Source: Planctomycetota bacterium (GTDB taxonomy: Bacteria > Planctomycetota > UBA8108 > SXIK01). Taken from it: a DNA stretch of 64,000 nucleotides. Position 1 is the first letter of the stretch; each line of letters starts with the position of its first letter. The position numbers and the translations under genes were made by a program. Where the stretch lies: NCBI GenBank assembly GCA_965223265.1, contig OZ244999.1, forward strand, positions 8,928,001-8,992,000, read 5' to 3'. Of this stretch, positions 26,272 to 63,689 are shown piece by piece. The notes below the pieces were generated by a model, which was given only the letters and a program-made list of their open reading frames with translations, was not told where the DNA came from and made no database searches.

Positions 26272-26295
26272 TGGTAGTGGTGTGGGGGTAAGGAA

Positions 26296-26424
26296 GATTC
26301 AGAGACGGAGGCAGATTCAGATTCAGATTCAGATTCGGAGTCAGATTCAGATTCAGATTCAGATTCAGATTCAGATTCGGAGTCAGAGACAGATTAGACA
26401 GATTCAGATTCGGAGTCGGAATCA
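26296..26424. repeat. Hexamer tract (GATTCA)n with GAGTCA/GAGACA/GATTCG variants
   Basis: 6-bp periodicity is directly visible just after the sulfotransferase stop. Confidence 0.95.
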
Positions 26425-26446
26425 ACCTCTGAGCCCAGGTACGCCC

Positions 26447-26512
26447 GCCCACGCCCACGCAAACGCAAACGCAAACGCAAACGCAAACGCAAACGCAAAC
26501 GCAAACGCAAAC
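26447..26512. repeat. Hexamer tract (GCCCAC)2(GCAAAC)9
   Basis: Perfect tandem units, counted by eye. Confidence 0.95.
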
Positions 26513-26540
26513 CGGCGCGTCGGCGGCGCTCGAGCCGAAG

Positions 26541-26641
26541 GCAGAGAAGAGCTCTGCTGCTCCGGGCGTGCGTGCGGCGGCGATTTTGTCGATCGTAACC
26601 GAAGCAGAGCCGGCCTCAAGGGTGCCCTGGCGCCGCTCGGC
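26541..26641 (+). repeat. Truncated, gene-less copy of the four-helix-bundle leader
   Basis: 26594-26628 is identical (35 nt) to 50388-50422. Similarity extends upstream to gcagagaagag. Confidence 0.9.
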
Positions 26642-48927: not shown

Positions 48928-49156
48928 TGCGCGGCCTTGGCTGCTGTGGTGGTGCCGAACGGCGAGTTGGACGCACATTCGGCGGTGTGTGACGCGAGAC
49001 AAGACTTTAACGCAGGCGTTTTGATCTTTGCCACCCTGCTCGCTTAAAATTGGCGCGAAGTGGCGGTCGACTCTACTACGGCAGTTCTCGGCTGCTCACG
49101 CAGGGGCGACGAAGAGTCGGCTTGAGCACGATCGACGAAAACTCAGTGAGAACGCG

Positions 49157-50269
49157 ATGCGCATCGTTCGGATCGAACCCATTCCCATCAACGTGCCACT
49201 GAAAAAGGGGCTGACGACGAAGACGGCGCACGGCGAGCATGTCGATTCACCGTACGTGATCGTGAGGGTGCACACAGATGAGGGGCTCGTCGGCCTTGGC
49301 GAGGCGACGCTCGCACCGCGCTGGAGCGGAGAGACGAGTTCCAGTTGTGTTGCCGCGCTTCGCGACCTGATTTCCCCAGCGCTTGTCGGCGAAGATCCAC
49401 GCGACATCACGCGGCTACGCGGGCGCATGGAGCGGGTGCTGAAGCTCAATCCATTCACCAAGGCGGCCGTCGAGATGGCGCTTTGGGATCTCCGCGGCAA
49501 GTCGTTGGACGTCCCGATTTACGAGCTCCTCGGCGGTAAGATGCACGACGAGCTACCGATCAAGATGGTGATCGGCGCTTTCGATGTGCCGAAGGCCGTT
49601 CAGCTCGCCGAGCAGTTTCTCGATTGGGGCGTCAAATGCCTCAAGGTCAAAGTCGGCGTCGATCCTGAATCTGACGTCGCTCGCGTTGAGGCGGTTCGCA
49701 GCGCAGCCGGGCCGGACGTTCCCATCGCCATCGACGCGAACTGCGGCTGGAACTTGGCAACGGCGCGGCGCACGCTCGAGTGCCTCGAAGAGTTCGACAT
49801 CTTGGTCGCCGAGCAGCCGATTCCTCCCGGCGATGTCGAGGCGTTCGCGGATCTCCGCAGCGCGACGACCATCCCCATCATGGCGGACGAGAGCGTGTTC
49901 ACGTTGACCGACGCGTGGGTGCTGACAGCGGCGCGGGCGGTCGACGTGCTTGCCGTCTACCCCGGTAAGCACGGCGGCATCGCAGCCACTCTTGAGCTGG
50001 CGCACGTGGCGTGCGGTGCCGGGATCGCTTGTGCGATCGGGAGCAACCTGGAGCTCGGTATCGGTACGGCTGCTATGCTGCACGTGGCTGCAAGCAATCC
50101 CACCATCGACAGCAAGACGTTTCCAGCCGATTTGATCGGACCGCTTTATCACGAAGCCGACATGCTCACGCAGCCGCTCGAACTCGGGCCAACCGCGGCG
50201 CACGTACCGTCCGGCCCCGGCCTTGGAGTGGAGCTCGACGAAGAGGCGTTGGCACGCTGGCGGGAGTAG
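49157..50269 (+). CDS. Mandelate racemase/muconate lactonizing enzyme family protein
   Basis: KVKVG, DANCG, EQP and MADES motifs. Confidence 0.92.
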   Translation: MRIVRIEPIPINVPLKKGLTTKTAHGEHVDSPYVIVRVHTDEGLVGLGEATLAPRWSGETSSSCVAALRDLISPALVGEDPRDITRLRGRMERVLKLNPFTKAAVEMALWDLRGKSLDVPIYELLGGKMHDELPIKMVIGAFDVPKAVQLAEQFLDWGVKCLKVKVGVDPESDVARVEAVRSAAGPDVPIAIDANCGWNLATARRTLECLEEFDILVAEQPIPPGDVEAFADLRSATTIPIMADESVFTLTDAWVLTAARAVDVLAVYPGKHGGIAATLELAHVACGAGIACAIGSNLELGIGTAAMLHVAASNPTIDSKTFPADLIGPLYHEADMLTQPLELGPTAAHVPSGPGLGVELDEEALARWRE

Positions 50270-50367
50270 GGGTTGTTGCTGACGATGCGGGTGCTGAGAG
50301 CTGGGACGGAGATCGAGACGGGGAAAGAGACAGAAGCAGAGAAGAGGTGTGCCGCCAAGGGGCGTTT

Positions 50368-50491
50368 GCGGCGGCGGTATTGTCGAGCGTAACCGAAGCA
50401 GAGCCGGCCTCAAGGGTGCCCTCGCTGCGCTCGGCGCTTCGCGCCCTTGACCCCGACTCTGCTTTGGTTGGCGGGGGTGAAACGCCGCCGC
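50368..50491 (+). promoter_or_regulatory. Foldback leader of four-helix-bundle gene 1, putative ssDNA (Frpo-like) promoter
   Basis: Nested stems 50368-76/50483-91, 50391-407/50453-69 and 50410-19/50441-50 with a 14/13-nt internal bubble. -35-like and -10-like hexamers are 16 nt apart. Confidence 0.65.
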
Positions 50492-50540
50492 GTCGGGCGT
50501 GCGGCGAGAGTTTCACTCAACCGGTTGACTGGAGTCGCTC

Positions 50541-50864
50541 ATGGGCTTTCTCGCTTTGGATCACTCTGTTGGTATCGTTCGTCAGTTGCGTCCGCTTGTC
50601 TCGCGTGTGCGTCGTCACGACTCGAAGCTTGCCGCTCAGCTGCGCGACGCGGGGTCCTCCGTGGCGCTGAATTTGGGCGAGGGCAATCGGCGCTCTGGTC
50701 GTGACCGCGGGCACCTTTGGCGTGTTGCTTCAGGCAGTGCCGAAGAGGTGCGTACGGCGCTCCGTGTTGCTGAAGCTTGGGGCTACGTCGATGCGCAGGA
50801 GACAGCTTCGGTGCTTGCGGACATCGACGAGCTGCAGGCGATGCTTTGGAAGCTGACGCGCTGA
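50541..50864 (+). CDS. Four-helix-bundle protein (23S rRNA-IVP / bAvd-like family)
   Basis: QLRDAGSSVALNLGEG...HLWRVASGSAEEV motif; GGAG RBS at 50531. Confidence 0.9.
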   Translation: MGFLALDHSVGIVRQLRPLVSRVRRHDSKLAAQLRDAGSSVALNLGEGNRRSGRDRGHLWRVASGSAEEVRTALRVAEAWGYVDAQETASVLADIDELQAMLWKLTR

Positions 50865-50880
50865 GCTTGGGGTCTTGGGC

Positions 50881-50909
50881 CCGCCGTGCTTTTTCGCGCG
50901 GCGGTTTTT
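50881..50909 (+). terminator. Intrinsic terminator
   Basis: ccgccgtgc-tttttc-gcgcggcgg followed by ttttt. Confidence 0.75.
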
Positions 50910-51091
50910 GAGGCGGGGGAGAGGCAGAGGGAGAGACGGAACCGGAGGCAGAGACAGGGGCAGAATCAGAGACGGATGACGGATAGAGATACAGAAGCAG
51001 ATGACAGAGTCAGAGACGGAGACAGACACAGATACAGATGCAGAGCCAGAGACGGATTCGGATGACGGAGACAGGGCCAGAAGTCGGAAGC
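50910..51091. repeat. Degenerate purine-rich hexamer tract (GAGACA/GAGGCA/GATACA/GAGTCA)
   Basis: Visible 6-bp periodicity between the two convergent four-helix-bundle genes. Confidence 0.85.
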
Positions 51092-51101
51092 GCCGTGACC
51101 A

Positions 51102-51127
51102 GCGCCCGCTACGAAAGTAGCGGGCGC
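51102..51127 (-). terminator. 3' hairpin of four-helix-bundle gene 2
   Basis: gcgcccgctac-gaaa-gtagcgggcgc is a perfect 11-bp stem 14 nt after the stop. No U-tract. Confidence 0.6.
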
Positions 51128-51140
51128 ATGGGCGTCTCGC

Positions 51141-51464
51141 TCAGCGCGTGAGTCCGCTGAGAAGAGCCAGGAGTCGATCGAGGGTCTGGAGAGGAACTGA
51201 GACGTCTTCGGCCCTGAGATCTCCCCAGGCCACAGTGATTCGCAGGGCGGTCTCGACCTCCCGGGCACTGCCGCGCGCAACGCGATAGAGATGAAGTCGG
51301 TCTTTCCCGGAGCGCTCGGCACCCTCCGAGAGATTGAGCGCGACGGAAGAGGCAGCCCGCCGAATCTGCCGATGGAGATCGGGATCAAGCCGACGCAGCC
51401 GCAGCAATGGAGCCCGCAAGTCGCGAATCAAAGCGAGACTGACATCGAGAGCGATGAAGCGCAT
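51141..51464 (-). CDS. Four-helix-bundle protein (23S rRNA-IVP / bAvd-like family), paralog 2
   Basis: MRFIALD...QIRRAASSVALNLSEG...RVARGSAREV; GGAGG RBS; 107 aa, 57/107 identical to paralog 1 by ungapped hand alignment. Confidence 0.9.
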   Translation of the reverse strand: MRFIALDVSLALIRDLRAPLLRLRRLDPDLHRQIRRAASSVALNLSEGAERSGKDRLHLYRVARGSAREVETALRITVAWGDLRAEDVSVPLQTLDRLLALLSGLTR

Positions 51465-51506
51465 GAGAAGCCTCCGAAACGGTGAGTCAAGAGCTCGCCG
51501 CGTCCG

Positions 51507-51597
51507 GGCGGCGGTACTCCACCCCCCAACGCGGAGCGGAGTGGGTGTCAAGGGCGCGCAGCGCCGAGCGCAGCGAGGGCACCCTTGACCACGGGTA
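51507..51597 (-). promoter_or_regulatory. Gene-proximal part of the foldback leader of gene 2, interrupted by the recombinase element
   Basis: 51547-51588 matches the reverse complement of 50410-50451 at 41/42 nt. TTGACA on the minus strand at 51546-51551. Confidence 0.75.
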
Positions 51598-51615
51598 GCC
51601 CACACTGATGTTGGT

Positions 51616-52065
51616 TTGACGACCGTAACGGTCTTCTATCCCTACCACCCCCTTGCGGGACGCTCTCTGCCGGTCGTTCGGCGGACCTCGAGAGAACCGC
51701 CCTGCTACTTGGTTCAAATCGAGAAGCGCCAGCTCTTGGTGCCGTGCTGGATGACCGAGGAGAGCGCTATGTGGGTGGAGCTGTGTAGATCGCCCCACAT
51801 CGACGTGGAGGAGCTCCTCGTCATTGCGGCGATCGTAGAGTCTCGACTCCAAGAAGCACCATCGTCCATCCTTGACTCAGAACCAACTCGAACCAAGGAG
51901 GAGGACGATGGTGTGGACGCAGCTTACTCTACCGTTCTTGCCGCCGGAAGATCAAAGCGTGCTCGCAGTGCTGAGCGCGAAGGAGCGGGAGGAAATCGCT
52001 CGGGCAGTGGCGATTCTCCTGCAGGCGATCATCGAGAACCACGGTGTGGAGGGCGAGAACGATGA
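51616..52065 (+). CDS. Y4bD/DUF5372-like recombinase-associated small protein (no clear own start)
   Basis: VTVFYPYHPLAGRSLPVV...LVPCWMT motif, recalled as typical of ORFs preceding this recombinase class. Confidence 0.6.
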   Translation: MTTVTVFYPYHPLAGRSLPVVRRTSREPPCYLVQIEKRQLLVPCWMTEESAMWVELCRSPHIDVEELLVIAAIVESRLQEAPSSILDSEPTRTKEEDDGVDAAYSTVLAAGRSKRARSAEREGAGGNRSGSGDSPAGDHREPRCGGRER

Positions 52066-52075
52066 GGATCGATAG
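51908..52075 (+). CDS. Small hypothetical protein of the recombinase element
   Basis: Strong GGAGGAGG RBS; MVWTQLTLPF... amphipathic helix; overlaps the recombinase start. Confidence 0.6.
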   Translation: MVWTQLTLPFLPPEDQSVLAVLSAKEREEIARAVAILLQAIIENHGVEGENDEDR

Positions 52076-54152
52076 CAATCATCCAGGTGGCGTCACTACC
52101 GAGCACCTCAGGCGCGCGGCAGTAGTATACATTCGTCAATCGTCGCCAACACAGGTGAAGAACAACGAAGAGAGCACGCGCCTGCAACGCGAACTGAGGC
52201 ACAAGGCGGTCGATCTTGGCTGGCGCGAGCCGATTCTCATCGAGGACGATCTCGGCGAGTCGGCTTCTGGATTCGTCGATCGCCCCGGCTTCGAGAAACT
52301 GAAGAGCTGGGTCATTGCCGGGGAAGTCGGGATTATCTTCTGTCTCGAGATTTCCCGACTGTCGAGGAATTCGGTGGACTGGGCGCGACTGATGGAGCTT
52401 TGTCAGCACTTCAATACGCTGATCGCGGACACCGAGCAGGTCTACGATCTGTCGCTCTCTAACGACAGACTGTTGATCGGCATCCGTGGCTCGATCTCAG
52501 AAGCCGAGCTTGCGACGATTCGCTTGCGATTGCGCCTAGGTCAGCAGGCGAAAGCGAAGCGAGGTGAGCTGTGGATTCAGTTACCGATCGGCTACGTCTA
52601 CGACGACACTGAGATTGTCTTCGATCCCGACGAGAGAATCCGTACCGCGATCCGCCGTGTCTTTCAGGACTTCCGTGGCTCCAGTAGTGCCCGACAGCTC
52701 GCATTGCATTACCGAGACGCGGGGATCGAGTTTCCGAGTCGGGGCTTGGGCAACAAGACGGTCAGGTGGGCGGTGCCGTCGGCCAAGTCGCTACACAACC
52801 TCCTGGTCAATCCGACCTATGCTGGAGCCTACGCTTGGGGTCGTTCAAGGACGACAAGCAAGATCGCCGATGGGAGGCTGGTCAAACAGCGTGAACGTCG
52901 GCAAGATCCTGGTGAAGCTCGGGTGATGATCCGTGACCATCACCCAGCCTACATCGATTGGTCAGAGTACGAAGCGAACTTGAAGAAGCTATCGCAGAAT
53001 CGACCGCGAAGAGGGCTCGACGGCAACCGAGGAGCCGCGCGGGAAGGCCAGGCTCTCCTGGCGGGGATGTTGCGTTGTGGTCACTGTGGCGATCAGCTGA
53101 AGGTCCGGTACCGATACGAGAAGGCCTTCTATTACTGCGACGGCACACGAAAGGGGAACTCACGCATTTGTCTCTCTGTTGGGGCATGTCGCGTTGACCC
53201 GATCGTCGCGCAGCAGTTGTGTCGAGCGCTTGACTCCTCGGGGATCGAGGCTGCGACCAGGGCGTTCGAGCAGATCGAGAAGAGCCGAGCCGACGAGTTG
53301 AACTACGCGAAGCAGCAGGTCGAGGCTGCGCAGTACGCCGCCAGTCATGCATTCGAACAGTTCGACGCGTGCGATCCGAGGAATCGCCTTGTTGCGGACA
53401 ACCTCGAGAAACGTCTCAACGACAAGCTTCAGCGGCTTGCCGAGGCAAAGGAGACACTCCACAAGCAGCAGTCGTCGAGATTGACGTTGACTGTCGCAGA
53501 GCGAAAACGTCTCGAGACTCTCGCACGGAACTTCCAGTTGGTCTGGCGATCGACGATTGATGTCAGGCTGAAGAAGACTCTGCTGCGAGCAGCGATTCAC
53601 GAGATCATGATCAAGGAGAGCGGCGAGCTCGTTGGATCCAATCGGCAAAGTCGCCGCCTGGAATTGACGATTCACTGGAAGGGCGGCGTACACTCTACCT
53701 CCGAGCTGTTGCGATTCCCCTCTCCGAAGGCATCAAGGGAAGTTTCGGTGCTCGAGCTGATCAAGCGGCTCAGCGCCGCGGCGCATAGTGACAGCGAGAT
53801 TGCCTTAGTGCTTAACAGACGAAGGCTCACGACCACACGGTGGACCAAAGACAAGGTGACCGAATTTCGCAAACACAACGGTATCAATTCAGCGCAGTCC
53901 TCCGATGATGCGTTGTCGATGAACGGCGCCAGCAAGTACCTAGGAGTTTCCTCGATAGCATTACGTACGCTTGTCGAACGAGGATTGATCAGGAAAAACC
54001 AAGTCGCCGAGTTCGCCCCCTGGCGCGTCTCTCGCCACGAGCTGGACTCCCCAGGAGTCCGGAGCCTCGTGGCGACGCTCAAGGCGACGGGTCGATTCCC
54101 GCCTAAGGAGGGCTGCGCGAAGAACCAGATGACGCTCTTCGACGACCTATGA
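52062..54152 (+). CDS. Large serine recombinase (resolvase + recombinase + zinc ribbon + coiled coil + HTH)
   Basis: VYIRQSS catalytic Ser, EISRLSRN, LVNPTYAG, HHPAYI and LRCGHCG motifs. Confidence 0.93.
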   Translation: MRIDSNHPGGVTTEHLRRAAVVYIRQSSPTQVKNNEESTRLQRELRHKAVDLGWREPILIEDDLGESASGFVDRPGFEKLKSWVIAGEVGIIFCLEISRLSRNSVDWARLMELCQHFNTLIADTEQVYDLSLSNDRLLIGIRGSISEAELATIRLRLRLGQQAKAKRGELWIQLPIGYVYDDTEIVFDPDERIRTAIRRVFQDFRGSSSARQLALHYRDAGIEFPSRGLGNKTVRWAVPSAKSLHNLLVNPTYAGAYAWGRSRTTSKIADGRLVKQRERRQDPGEARVMIRDHHPAYIDWSEYEANLKKLSQNRPRRGLDGNRGAAREGQALLAGMLRCGHCGDQLKVRYRYEKAFYYCDGTRKGNSRICLSVGACRVDPIVAQQLCRALDSSGIEAATRAFEQIEKSRADELNYAKQQVEAAQYAASHAFEQFDACDPRNRLVADNLEKRLNDKLQRLAEAKETLHKQQSSRLTLTVAERKRLETLARNFQLVWRSTIDVRLKKTLLRAAIHEIMIKESGELVGSNRQSRRLELTIHWKGGVHSTSELLRFPSPKASREVSVLELIKRLSAAAHSDSEIALVLNRRRLTTTRWTKDKVTEFRKHNGINSAQSSDDALSMNGASKYLGVSSIALRTLVERGLIRKNQVAEFAPWRVSRHELDSPGVRSLVATLKATGRFPPKEGCAKNQMTLFDDL

Positions 54153-54249
54153 AGGTAAATCGACCGGGTTGTATCAAAGATTCGTCAGATTACGTCGGCT
54201 TACACCGAAAGGACTTACGACAGCGGAAGGTTGGAGGTGCATTGTGTGC

Positions 54250-54297
54250 TCGACTTCACAGTTCCGAGCACCGCGTAAGCTCGACAAGGCCGCCGCC
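54250..54297 (-). promoter_or_regulatory. Displaced distal arm of the gene-2 leader
   Basis: The reverse complement ggcggcggccttgtcgagcttacgcgg matches ggcggcggtattgtcgagcgtaacc at 50370 and can pair with 51507-51537. Confidence 0.7.
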
Positions 54298-54322
54298 GTG
54301 CGGTGACCCCAACCCACACGGA

Positions 54323-54569
54323 CTCCCACACGGACTCCCACACGGACTCCCACACCCACGGGAACGGCCGACGCGCACGCCGACAAGGCCGGACGGCACA
54401 CGGCGTGTGCCTGCCACGTTGAAGAGGCGCGCACCCCCTCCCACACGGACTCCCACACGGACTCCCACACCCACGGGAACGGCCGACGCGCACGCCGACA
54501 AGGCCGGACGGCACACGGCGTGTGCCTGCCACGTTGAAGAGGCGCGCACCCCCTCCCACACGGACTCCC
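54323..54569. repeat. 115-bp perfect tandem duplication containing 12-mer (CCCACACGGACT) subrepeats
   Basis: GGGAACGGCCG occurs at 54360 and 54475. Identity at offset 115 runs from 54323 to 54569. Confidence 0.92.
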
Positions 54570-54577
54570 CCTCCCAC

Positions 54578-54655
54578 GCCCACGCCCACGCCCACGCAAA
54601 CGCCCACGCAAACGCCCACGCCCACGCCCACGCAAACGCAAACGCAAACGCAAAC
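54578..54655. repeat. 13-unit mixed GCCCAC/GCAAAC hexamer tract
   Basis: Units counted by eye; same two units as at 26447-26512. Confidence 0.95.
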
Positions 54656-54671
54656 GCGCGCGAGCAATCTC

Positions 54672-55742
54672 CTACAGATCGCGGAAACGAAAGCTGCTTT
54701 CGATCTTGGCGGCGTCCGTTCTGCCATCGACCTCAACGTACGGATAGATCAGGAAATTCACTGGCCCGCCGCTCTGCGGTGGATCGAGAATCAGATCGCG
54801 TCCGCGCGAGAACGCGACGCGGTTTTCGCAGATGGCACCGAAGAAGTATTCTTTCCTCGTCGGGTCCTTGTCGGCCTCCGAAGCGTCCACCGGACGCCAG
54901 CGGCCGGCGTCGTCTTGGTACCAGGCCCAGCAGTGATAGCCGCCGACGGATCCTTCGCCGCGGCGTTCTGGAAGCGGAAATCCGATCTCAAAGACGGCGG
55001 GAATCTCCTTCGCGCGCGACATGGCGATGAAGAGAGTGTGAAAATCGGAACAGTTTCCCTTACCACTCTCGCAGACGTACTCCAGATTGCCGCGTCCCCA
55101 ACCCACGCCAGATTTGTCGTAGTCGACGTCGGCGAGAACTTGATCGTAGATCGCTTTCGCTTTTCCTTCGACGTCGGAGTGTCCGTGGGTGGCTCGTGCG
55201 GCTCGGAGTCTTGCCGCATCGCTGAGCGGCGCGAGGCGGTCTCCGGACAAAAGTCGCCTTCGACGTGGCAGACCGGGGAGGTTTGCGAGCGCGGCGACTT
55301 CGTGGCGGTCGACGTCCATCGTCACGGAGATCGGGATCTCGTCGGGTAGCGGCGCATTGAACTCGAGGTAAGCAAGACGGTTGCCGTAGACCTTCTCCTC
55401 GCCAAATTCAGGCTTCGCCGGAGCGTTCACCTCGACGCGCTGCACGGTCTGCGCGCCGTCGTCGGTCGGGAGCGGTAGCCAGATACGCACCTGATTGGCG
55501 TCTTTCGCGATGCCGGATATGGTCGTGCTGTATTCGAAGCGAAACAGTCGCCGACCCGAGAGGTCCGTTTGTTCTTGGGGCTCGCGACACGCGCAGAGCG
55601 GCAACCCGAAGACCAGAATGCACGCAAGACGGAGGAGCCGCGTGCGACAGGCCTGTCGACAAGCGCGCTGGGAGTTGTCGCAAGCGTTCAATCGATGCAA
55701 GCCACGATCGTGACGAATGGAAGAGTTCATAAACGAAAACAA
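54672..55742 (-). CDS. Transglutaminase-like domain protein
   Basis: Triad motifs GNCSDFH, YHCWAW and VDAS. Start is uncertain. Confidence 0.88.
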   Translation of the reverse strand: MFSFMNSSIRHDRGLHRLNACDNSQRACRQACRTRLLRLACILVFGLPLCACREPQEQTDLSGRRLFRFEYSTTISGIAKDANQVRIWLPLPTDDGAQTVQRVEVNAPAKPEFGEEKVYGNRLAYLEFNAPLPDEIPISVTMDVDRHEVAALANLPGLPRRRRLLSGDRLAPLSDAARLRAARATHGHSDVEGKAKAIYDQVLADVDYDKSGVGWGRGNLEYVCESGKGNCSDFHTLFIAMSRAKEIPAVFEIGFPLPERRGEGSVGGYHCWAWYQDDAGRWRPVDASEADKDPTRKEYFFGAICENRVAFSRGRDLILDPPQSGGPVNFLIYPYVEVDGRTDAAKIESSFRFRDL

Positions 55743-62246: not shown

Positions 62247-63291
62247 TGCGACGCTGCGACTGAGTGGTTGGCGCGGCGCGCTTCGATCGGTTCGGAAGTG
62301 TCTCCGCCTCACGGTCGCCATGGTTTTGGGCCTCTGCGCCGCCGCCTGTCCGCTCGCCGGAGTCTTCGCTGGCGAGCCTGTTGCCGTGACGAGCGATGGT
62401 CTCCTTAAGCTCGCACCTTCTTTCGCCGATGCCGGCGCTGCGATCGTCTACTCAGTGCATGACATCCCAAACCGAGTCACGCTGTTCAAACGCGACCTTG
62501 AAACAGGGGCGATGGAGCGTCTCCTGCCGAATACGGAAAACCACCAATTCGATGCAGAGCTCTCTCCCGACGGTCGTTATCTCGTCTATTCGCGGACGCT
62601 ATCGTCGCCTCAGATGCAGCTGGTCATTTACGACCGCCGCGAAAAGAAGGAGTCCGTCCACAATCCGCGCGGTGCACGCAGTACCATTCGTGGCGCAGTG
62701 GTGACGCCAGACTCCCAGCTGGTCGTCTTCAGCCAATCGGGGCCAGGCGGGCAGCAGATCGTGCGGACGAACATGAAGGCTGAGGAGCTGACGTACTTGA
62801 CGCGGTCGCCGGGGATCAACATCTCTCCGGCTGTCTCTCCGGATGGGCGCGCCGTGGCCTTCAGCTCGAGTCGTGACGGCAACCTTGAAATCTACGTCAT
62901 GAACATTGATGGATCCGAGCAGCGCCGGGTCACGCGCAGTCCGACGCTCGACATGCATCCCGCGTGGTCTCCCGACGGGCGTCGCCTTGCTTTCACCAGC
63001 AGCCGCGACGGCAACTACGAGATCTACGTTGTCACTGTCGCACGCAGCGCCGACGAGGGCGATGGCGAAGCGACCGCGAGCACAAGCGCTGGCAAGACAG
63101 CCTCGCAGCCCGCAGCTGCAGCACCCCCTCTTAAAGCGTTCAATCTCACGCAGCATCCCGAACGCGACGATTTTGCCGTCTGGCACCCCGACGGGCGTCG
63201 CGTGCTCGCGGTGTCTGAGCGGCGCGGTCGATTCGATCTTTATTTGTTCGAAGTGCCTGCGGAGGAGGTGGGAGGCGGGGTGGCGGAATAG
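62233..63291 (+). CDS. TolB-like PD40 beta-propeller protein
   Basis: Repeated SPDGR..AFSSSRDGN.EIYV. Start is uncertain. Confidence 0.85.
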   Translation: MSCCSATLRLSGWRGALRSVRKCLRLTVAMVLGLCAAACPLAGVFAGEPVAVTSDGLLKLAPSFADAGAAIVYSVHDIPNRVTLFKRDLETGAMERLLPNTENHQFDAELSPDGRYLVYSRTLSSPQMQLVIYDRREKKESVHNPRGARSTIRGAVVTPDSQLVVFSQSGPGGQQIVRTNMKAEELTYLTRSPGINISPAVSPDGRAVAFSSSRDGNLEIYVMNIDGSEQRRVTRSPTLDMHPAWSPDGRRLAFTSSRDGNYEIYVVTVARSADEGDGEATASTSAGKTASQPAAAAPPLKAFNLTQHPERDDFAVWHPDGRRVLAVSERRGRFDLYLFEVPAEEVGGGVAE

Positions 63292-63476
63292 AGGCGGAGG
63301 CAGAGGCAGAGGCAGAGGCGGAGACAGAGACAGAGGCAGAGGCGGAGACAGAGGCAGAGGCGGAGACAGAGACAGAGGCAGAGGCGGAGACAGAGGCAGA
63401 GGCAGAGGCGGAGACAGAGGCAGAGGCAGAGGCAGAGGCGGAGACAGAGACAGAGGCAGAGGCAGAGGCGGAGACA
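63291..63476. repeat. 31-unit hexamer tract of GAGGCA/GAGGCG/GAGACA
   Basis: 186 bp in exact 6-bp register, starting at the last base of the upstream stop codon. Confidence 0.95.
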
Positions 63477-63689
63477 TCCTGTCTGCGATTGAAGTGAGCC
63501 ACAAATCCTCTGCGGACGGGCTCGGACACCCTTGTCCTCAGGTTCGATTGGCGGTTGTAGGGCGTCGCGGCGGGCTTCACGTTTGGTGAGGTTTGCCGGT
63601 GTGCCTGTTACTCTACCGCACACGCACACCCGCCCTCGCCCACGTCCTTGTTCCGTCGTCGCCGCCTGTCGCCCCCGTCTGCGGCGCGC

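Follow-up and report, generated by a model that had tools for sequence, protein, structure and literature searches.

We analysed a 64,000-nucleotide (nt) stretch of the genome of a Planctomycetota bacterium (GCA_965223265.1, contig OZ244999.1, positions 8,928,001-8,992,000, forward strand; hereafter the window), in which a long hairpin at 50368-50491 stands before a gene for a small four-helix-bundle protein. This hairpin is conserved in evolution and under selection. The reading we prefer, tentatively and with rather less than even confidence, is that it serves as an RNA leader on the sense strand, which leaves a promoter-like motif on the antisense strand unexplained. At the level of sequence that motif, in which -35 and -10 hexamers like those of sigma-70 promoters stand on the antisense arm, is real, and it underlay an earlier proposal for this locus (the original prediction), in which the folded template strand was taken for a promoter working on single-stranded DNA (ssDNA).

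The geometry proposed for the hairpin was borne out in full (coordinates in Table 1). A 9-bp outer stem (P1), read from the sequence, is followed by an internal loop with 14 unpaired nt on its 5' side and 13 on its 3' side, and then by a long inner stem (P2) that ends in the TCAAGGG/CCCTTGA helix. The bottom strand does read TTGAGG, 16 nt, TACGCT, the gene-facing TTGACC on the top strand is followed 16 nt on by TGGCGG, which is no -10 hexamer, and the two arms of this copy differ by two top-strand wobbles and one bottom-strand wobble, as had been claimed. Folding as DNA and as RNA, the check suggested with the proposal, returned the same structure as the minimum-energy fold on either strand: the top strand folded as RNA reached -80.4 kcal/mol (z-score -4.80, 0 of 200 shuffles equal or better), the top strand as DNA -41.5 kcal/mol (z -3.15, 1 of 200) and the bottom strand as DNA -39.1 kcal/mol (z -2.80, 3 of 200).

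The hairpin belongs to a cassette that is repeated across the genome, which is a single contig of 9.18 Mb with 38 PF05635 matches (36 above the cut-off) and 43 matches to the leader DNA. The start codon provided an anchor for 37 genes, 17 of type A (MGFLALDH...) and 20 of type B (MRFIALDVS...), 36 of them 107 amino acids (aa) long, and each of the 37 is trailed by a terminator-like hairpin and hexamer microsatellites. Types A and B have a common leader architecture, and seven convergent A/B pairs occur genome-wide, laid out as in the window. Conservation from copy to copy starts ~10 nt before P1 in type B and ~35 nt before it in type A. Taken together, the cassette has the look of a mobile or selfish unit that has so far gone unrecognised; literature searches returned no description of the leader or the cassette.

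Covariation across homologues, also suggested with the original prediction, was examined in an alignment of 31 distinct copies, 23 from this genome and eight from a genome (G007) that belongs to the same order but a different family. RNAalifold called 33 pairs, 11 of them with compensatory changes; 96.8% of the 1,023 cells held standard pairs, against 34.0-52.4% when the partners were slid by one to three columns, and the covariation score of 0.267 (0.105 in shuffles) was reached by none of 500 shuffles. Within P2, nine of 13 pairs had changed on both sides. That the stem sequence has been altered with its pairing kept points to a folded single strand and not to a sequence-specific duplex site. 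Two U.G pairs are invariant in 31/31 copies, whilst two other pairs drift, one between A-U and G.U, the other between U-A, U.G and C-G; P1 gives no covariation information because it is invariant in all 31. A cmsearch alignment (A4), in which sense and antisense matches were mixed, was left out of these counts. The 5' side of the internal loop is conserved in sequence across type A, type B, G007 and Myxococcota leaders.

Beyond this genome, BLAST with the leader gave matches in two of 41 related genomes and a covariance model (R1) in two of the 21 genomes of the order, 41 in the genome itself and 14 in G007; many of the genomes in these sets are incomplete, and 150 candidates per genome were scored. 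A protein-alignment search of named genomes returned 48 loci, mostly in Myxococcota metagenome-assembled genomes (MAGs), with proteins 40-55% identical, and one Planctomycetota MAG locus with a full leader (119.5 bits). Many of the Myxococcota MAGs have a weaker R1 match (24-38 bits) directly 5' of the gene and a second one downstream on the opposite strand, which is the convergent-pair layout again. By eye and by pattern search, the core of the MAG leaders consists of GTGCTCGG, TCAAGG, a branched apex unlike the planctomycete one, CCTTGAC and CCTCCGC. Eighty metagenome loci yielded further planctomycete-type and Myxococcota-type leaders, plus other leader classes (L108, L114, L118, L129, L154, L168, L186, L192, L214, L216) with a near-perfect closing stem of 20-26 bp; this stem contains GGGCATG and the first codons, so the start codon is buried, and its 3' arm carries a recurrent TG[GT]CACG-N4-yTGCG, 12-14 nt before the ATG, which looks sigma-54-like but is usually without the second G. 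Judged from these matches, the leader is older and wider than its own genome and is conserved in two phyla.

As an RNA, the hairpin would act as the 5' untranslated region of the four-helix-bundle gene. It would consist of P1, the conserved loop and the covarying P2, with P1 competing with an alternative downstream hairpin (P3) and, in type A, also with an upstream strand (P0). P3 would take up the purine-rich 3' side of the loop together with a pyrimidine-rich tract before the ribosome-binding site, and this competition between folds could gate ribosome access, translation or processing. Binding would probably be at the conserved loop, and what binds there may be the nucleic-acid-binding four-helix-bundle protein that the cassette itself encodes; the antisense -35/-10 pattern would be an outward-facing promoter in duplex DNA. 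We infer in this way the transcription of the leader, its switching and its binding partner.

The choice of the sense strand is suggested by the wobbles. Where the two arms mismatch by a transition, 53 distinct leaders hold 108 wobbles on the sense strand and 29 on the template strand, counted as cells, not as independent events, several of them from conserved positions. The bias recurs in Myxococcota (64 sense, 12 template), G007 (24 and 6), type A (12 and 5) and type B (8 and 4) and is absent from three metagenome leaders (0 and 2). The sense strand also folds more stably in 38/38 planctomycete-type leaders and 18/24 Myxococcota genome loci, a measure inflated by its slight G+T richness (0.53). 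P3 excludes P1, is present in minimum-energy folds and pairs better on the sense than on the antisense strand in 32 of 39 leaders, and in the G007 copies its pairing runs from GAGAG/CTCTC through GGGGG/CTCTC to GGGGG/CCCTC, that is from Watson-Crick to wobble to re-compensated; we count it as moderate evidence, since the downstream tract, when shuffled, loses little of its pairing. P0 is paired in 94.8% of 77 cells from 11 type-A copies, a figure to be read beside the 80.5% and 88.3% that slides of three columns either way also reach; its tract reads GYYGYY, and four of its pairs vary C/U opposite G, so that the pairing holds only through U.G wobbles. As context for an RNA we further count the other-class leaders that bury the start codon. 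A homologous S23p open reading frame (ORF) lies within a stem-loop in the Coxiella intervening sequence (IVS), where RNase III cuts the stem, according to PMC4990558.

Several observations weigh against an RNA leader. Among the 59 mixed-class metagenome leaders the sense strand was the more stable in only 23. The mean energy of P3 (-12.9 kcal/mol) is only moderately better than in composition-matched shuffles (-10.7 kcal/mol), just 10 of 39 leaders are matched by no more than 10 of 200 shuffles, and type B stands at the shuffle level; P0, with no pair changed on both sides, is weakly supported. No sense-strand promoter was found upstream of the leader in a consensus scan of 50200-51800, and, with conservation among type-B copies that begins only ~10 nt before P1, a duplicated cassette would lack a promoter of its own. 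No Rfam family matches the leader: there were no matches at gathering thresholds in the 64-kb window, and at E<=10 over 50250-51750 there was noise only, the best hit being a plant miRNA model at 20.7 bits against a gathering threshold of 137. Lastly, the RNA model has no reason to predict an antisense TTGAnn-15/17-nAnnnT with its -11 position at the loop edge.

This antisense pattern was followed through 66 leaders from two genomes of the order, Myxococcota MAGs and metagenome contigs. TAnnnT was said to be kept in three copies, and its loss from homologues was to count against the proposal; nAnnnT is found 15-17 nt from TTGAnn in 64 of the 66, and the first base varies (T at -12 in 42 rows, C in 18, G in 6). 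A at -11 and T at -7 are present in 64/66 rows, whilst the three middle bases vary freely (TACGCT, TACAAT, TAAAAT, CACGAT and others), the spacer is 16 nt in 36 rows, 15 nt in 27 and 17 nt in three, and the -35-like hexamer reads CTGGAC rather than TTGAnn in three rows. The two misses are L138+ and L202-, the latter a spurious regex match inside a coding region. The same spaced hexamer follows 7,769 of 68,705 genomic TTGA sites (11.3%), and the sense arm has nAnnnT at 15-17 nt in 0 of 62 leaders. A generic sigma-70 scan of 50200-51800 listed no site on either strand, because the second hexamer of the 50368-50491 copy matches the consensus at only three of six positions, and neither the consensus scan nor the sense-arm count revealed a duplex promoter that faces the gene.

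On the hairpin-promoter account, the template strand, when single-stranded or extruded, folds so that the distal helix forms a duplex -35, P2 the spacer, the loop a pre-melted -10 and P1 the downstream duplex, and sigma-70 holoenzyme starts near 50480 into the gene. We regard this as possible though doubtful. It would explain both facts that the RNA model leaves aside, the absent sense promoter and the conserved antisense pattern, whose frequency in the leaders far exceeds that of the genomic background and of the sense arm; the free variation of the three middle bases is what real -10 boxes show, the pairing of P2 ends with T(-12) and leaves A(-11), at the loop edge, as the first base without a partner, the covariation of the spacer stem demands intrastrand pairing, and the bottom strand does fold as DNA. 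The size of the bubble, whose loss from homologues was likewise to count against the proposal, is kept in most planctomycete-type copies, in which the template side of the loop is 13-14 nt; two type-B copies have sides of just 8 and 10 nt. An open-complex bubble measures 13-14 nt. Set against this account is the wobble bias, with conserved and drifting pairs that become A.C on the template strand. P3 and P0 use sequence outside the predicted transcript, moderate to weak as their support is; the internal-loop motif GTGCTCGG / CCTCCGC is conserved within what would be a spacer, where it is not required; and the -10 of the 50368-50491 copy is a poor one.

A stronger form, in which the hairpin is the cassette's only promoter and the gene is transcribed only when its template is single-stranded (through head-on replication, repair, uptake or movement), is likewise a proposition we doubt. 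No duplex promoter faces the gene, and a copied unit that starts only ~10-35 nt before P1 would be made autonomous by an internal promoter. The copies are chromosomal with no evident source of ssDNA, and relatives of the element were found in none of 72,556 plasmids (searched as DNA or protein), 50,697 phage records or viral contigs. With a GC-rich centre, ~27 nt of it non-palindromic, the hairpin would be unlikely to extrude as a cruciform from duplex DNA.

Replication polarity divides the two gene types on this point. It rests on an origin at ~7.9 Mb and a terminus at ~3.5 Mb, both taken from cumulative GC skew; the single 16S gene, co-directional at 2.0 Mb, and a DnaA-family match at 7.96 Mb support this placement, whereas the best DnaA match, at 5.35 Mb, is contrary to it. 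In type B, 16 of 20 genes run head-on to replication; their template strand therefore lies on the lagging-strand template and is exposed by replication, as a hairpin promoter would need. Sixteen of 17 type-A genes, the 50541 copy included, are co-directional; their template strand is the leading-strand template, and replication therefore exposes the sense strand, the wrong one. The ssDNA-promoter interpretation thus came through the comparison of homologues with its pattern kept, whilst the wobble bias, the chromosomal context and the type-A polarity speak against it.

In a third explanation, which we consider unlikely, the leaders are DNA-level elements, the inverted-repeat ends of a mobile two-gene cassette with outward duplex promoters and a palindrome recognised by a protein (recombinase, transposase or repressor), and the hairpin, if relevant at all, would be only a transient DNA structure in movement or replication. 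Paired leaders are inverted repeats of 67 nt with 85% complementarity, 1,045 nt apart, the pair layout and flanking hexamer arrays are seen again in Myxococcota, and the promoter-like pattern works as written in duplex DNA. By a tally from the listing, 25 of 30 independent units (seven pairs, 10 type-A solos and 13 type-B solos) share one polarity relative to replication, a bias typical of ssDNA-dependent mobile elements, although the purine-rich microsatellite strand may be what is polar. A serine-recombinase element has also inserted at the same point of a type-B leader in five of its six copies, which means that at least one enzyme recognises the leader in its DNA form. Yet the compensatory changes in nine of 13 P2 pairs point to a folded single strand, the sense-strand wobble bias has no duplex-DNA explanation, and nothing beyond the outward promoter is conserved except microsatellites. 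There is no transposase inside the cassette, and the only Y1 (IS200/IS605-type) transposase match in the genome, at 4206881-4207093 (G000:C1), is weak (27.3 bits, cut-off 23), with no link to the cassettes established.

Still less probable is coincidence, in which a conserved RNA loop beside a palindromic helix gives rise to a promoter-like pattern without transcriptional meaning on either strand. Conservation does exceed the -10 box, with C at -10 and CGA at -6 to -4 kept in many copies, and the hexamer of the 50368-50491 copy is a poor consensus match, but a joint pattern in 64/66 rows over two phyla, against the 11.3% background and none on the other arm, speaks against this reading. An inverton is rejected because all leaders share a single orientation (in 65/65 genuine leaders the promoter-like arm points the same way with respect to the gene). 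Contigs derived from four sequencing runs, which break at the repeats, reach up to 213 kb and behave like DNA, contained no strand-changing joint, although such contigs drop rare variants. Sigma-54-like (TGnCACG-N4-yyGC) and extracytoplasmic-function (ECF)-like readings of the sense arm were considered by eye and dropped, since the spacing is not constant and GA or GT mostly stands in place of the critical GG. Also by eye, K-turn and loop-E motifs did not fit the internal loop, and a pseudoknot between the 5' loop strand and the apex, where five bases can pair, was set aside, since those loop positions that vary show no covariation with the invariant apex.

Both cassette-gene products of the window belong to the four-helix-bundle family, at 55.3 (type A) and 49.2 bits against PF05635 (cut-off 33.8) and at 57.7 (type A) and 52.2 bits against TIGR02436 (cut-off 24), and the nearest solved relative of the type-A product by sequence is PDB 2gsc_A (E 7.4e-06). 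The upstream neighbour on the same strand (49028-50269) is an enolase-superfamily gene (MR_MLE), which stops 99 nt before P1, and transcriptional read-through from it into the leader of the 50541 copy may occur. As a general source of transcription, read-through was set aside: a co-oriented upstream ORF was called in eight of 12 callable type-A and five of 12 type-B copies, by an ORF caller too crude for the counts to be usable.

Table 1. Hairpin leader, cassette genes and related features of the window
Feature	Position	Strand	Remarks
Orphan 5' half of a type-A-like leader	26573-26641	+	Without 3' arm or gene
P0 upstream strand	50350-50356	+	TGCCGCC; can pair with P1 5' arm at 50370-50376; type A only
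P1 5' arm	50368-50376	+	GCGGCGGCG; pairs with 50483-50491; no variation among 31 aligned copies
Internal loop, 5' side	50377-50390	+	14 nt; sense-strand TCGAnnGT(A) conserved
-10-like hexamer	50386-50391	-	TACGCT; template strand
P2 5' arm	50391-50416	+	TCAAGGG at its end (50410-50416, opposite 50444-50450)
-35-like hexamer	50408-50413	-	TTGAGG; template strand; 16 nt from the -10-like hexamer
Apical region	50417-50443	+	GC-rich; near-invariant in planctomycete-type copies; Myxococcota apex differs, branched
P2 3' arm	50444-50469	+	Begins CCCTTGA; contains sense TTGACC (50447-50452), no -10 after it
Internal loop, 3' side	50470-50482	+	13 nt, G-rich
Alternative hairpin P3	50477-50516	+	3' end of loop and P1 3' arm with downstream GCGGCG and GTTTCAC
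P1 3' arm	50483-50491	+	CGCCGCCGC; alternative partner 50501-50506
Shine-Dalgarno-like GGAG	50531-50534	+	Invariant in 39 aligned leaders
Type-A four-helix-bundle gene	50541-50864	+	107 aa; PF05635, TIGR02436
Terminator-like hairpin, then T run	50881-50904	+	Comparable hairpin after the stop codon in 37 listed copies
Type-B four-helix-bundle gene	51141-51464	-	107 aa; convergent with the type-A gene
Type-B leader, 3' two-thirds ('copy 2')	51465-51588	-	Severed from its 5' arm
Insertion sequence (IS)-like insertion	51589-54260	+	2.7 kb; orf149 (51616-52065) and large serine recombinase (52044-54152)
Type-B leader, displaced 5' arm	54261-54310	-	P1 5' arm, loop with AGCTTA, ACGCGG
Microsatellite arrays	26283-26520, 50943-51077, 54547-54690, 63254-63505		

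The two further copies that the original prediction had drawn on are both incomplete in the window. Covariation in its second copy was well judged insofar as intact type-B copies elsewhere pair in the way assumed, although the window copy is itself split and forms no intact hairpin, whilst the copy at 26.6 kb turned out to be only the 5' half of a leader. The element that splits the type-B leader encodes a 149-aa product (orf149) without Pfam or NCBIfam match and a 702-aa serine recombinase with Resolvase, Recombinase and Zn_ribbon_recom domains (XisF-like at 103.6 bits, below the cut-off). Its six genomic copies encode proteins that are 99.9-100% identical; the five within leaders occupy one identical point in the 5' arm, and the sixth adjoins a truncated type-B coding region that resembles the leader apex in sequence. 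Just past the displaced 5' arm, 54323-54552 is a perfect 115-bp tandem duplication with relatives at other insertion sites.

Arrays of 6-nt (often 12- or 18-nt) microsatellites border nearly every cassette in this genome, and homologous cassettes in Myxococcota MAGs and metagenomes are bordered by microsatellites too, of different units (L105, L118, L120-L131, L167-L227). Two type-A genes outside the window, at 5176239 and 4913457 (G000:C1), are intact behind damaged leaders, one of which lacks the stretch from the start of P2 to the Shine-Dalgarno region and the other P1 and the 5' loop strand; these copies are candidate natural controls for expression.

Among known systems, the protein family leads first to rRNA. 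Among the members of PF05635 are the S23p ORFs carried by rRNA intervening sequences, as well as Avd proteins from diversity-generating retroelements. As in a 23S rRNA IVS, an ORF of this family is here tied to a long stem of complementary sequences; unlike there, where the stem encloses the ORF inside the 23S gene, the hairpin here stands 5' of the ORF, at loci between genes. Neighbours of the locus are the enolase-superfamily gene on one side and a second cassette gene on the other, a search of the window against Rfam gives no rRNA, and the single 16S gene lies far off at 2.0 Mb; the element is probably set apart from rRNA IVSs by stem placement and locus, in a genome whose 23S gene was neither located nor inspected.

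Opposite-polarity promoters within the structured leader of a mobile or selfish locus are known from IS10 pOUT and hok/sok. The present leader differs from these in that the predicted leftward transcript would overlap at most ~10-40 nt of any sense RNA, and P0, the sole hairpin in the overlapping stretch, pairs well on the sense strand only. With 5' leaders that gate expression, riboswitch-like or autoregulatory, it shares a conserved loop, covarying stems and a closing stem that is exclusive with a hairpin next to the Shine-Dalgarno sequence, whereas it has no Rfam family and no sense promoter that we could find, is multi-copy and is linked to a cassette. If the sense-strand RNA leader that we favour is right, it would give PF05635, a large and functionally obscure family, a previously undescribed leader, ~130 nt long, structured and strongly covarying, with a hint of autoregulation; the RNA would be a new family of a known kind, whereas a promoter would be a new variant in a new setting. 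As to 5' ends and wobble-to-mismatch mutants, what the sense-strand model predicts is the opposite of what the template-strand model predicts. Either way, the cassette brings together convergent pairs, hairpin leaders, microsatellites, replication polarity and a serine-recombinase element that inserts into leaders.

A further parallel comes from the minus-strand origins of filamentous phages and from ssoA-type single-strand origins, where RNA polymerase uses promoter-mimicking ssDNA hairpins and the complementary strand is thereby primed on the ssDNA of phages or rolling-circle plasmids; the present locus differs in that no such replicon or ssDNA intermediate is evident, nor did we find phage or viral matches. 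Closest in design are Frpo and ssi, in which, as described in PMC11541004, a template-strand hairpin presents -35 and -10 to the host RNA polymerase for transcription into the downstream gene. The leader has the same structural layout, with -35/-10-like hexamers suitably spaced on the template arm in 64/66 cases; it departs from Frpo/ssi in its location, with ~37 chromosomal copies and no oriT or leading-region context found, in its downstream gene, a PF05635 four-helix bundle and not ssb, psiB or an anti-defence gene, and in a wobble bias that favours the opposite strand. The element resembles Frpo as described, a likeness of description rather than of sequence, and we do not file it as one. 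Were the hairpin promoter nevertheless to hold true, ssDNA-dependent transcription would reach beyond plasmid leading regions into chromosomal cassettes of Planctomycetota and Myxococcota, whose leaders would form the first family of ssDNA promoters from outside conjugative plasmids and ssDNA phages, and expression of an Avd/S23p-like protein would be tied to the single-stranded state of its own locus.

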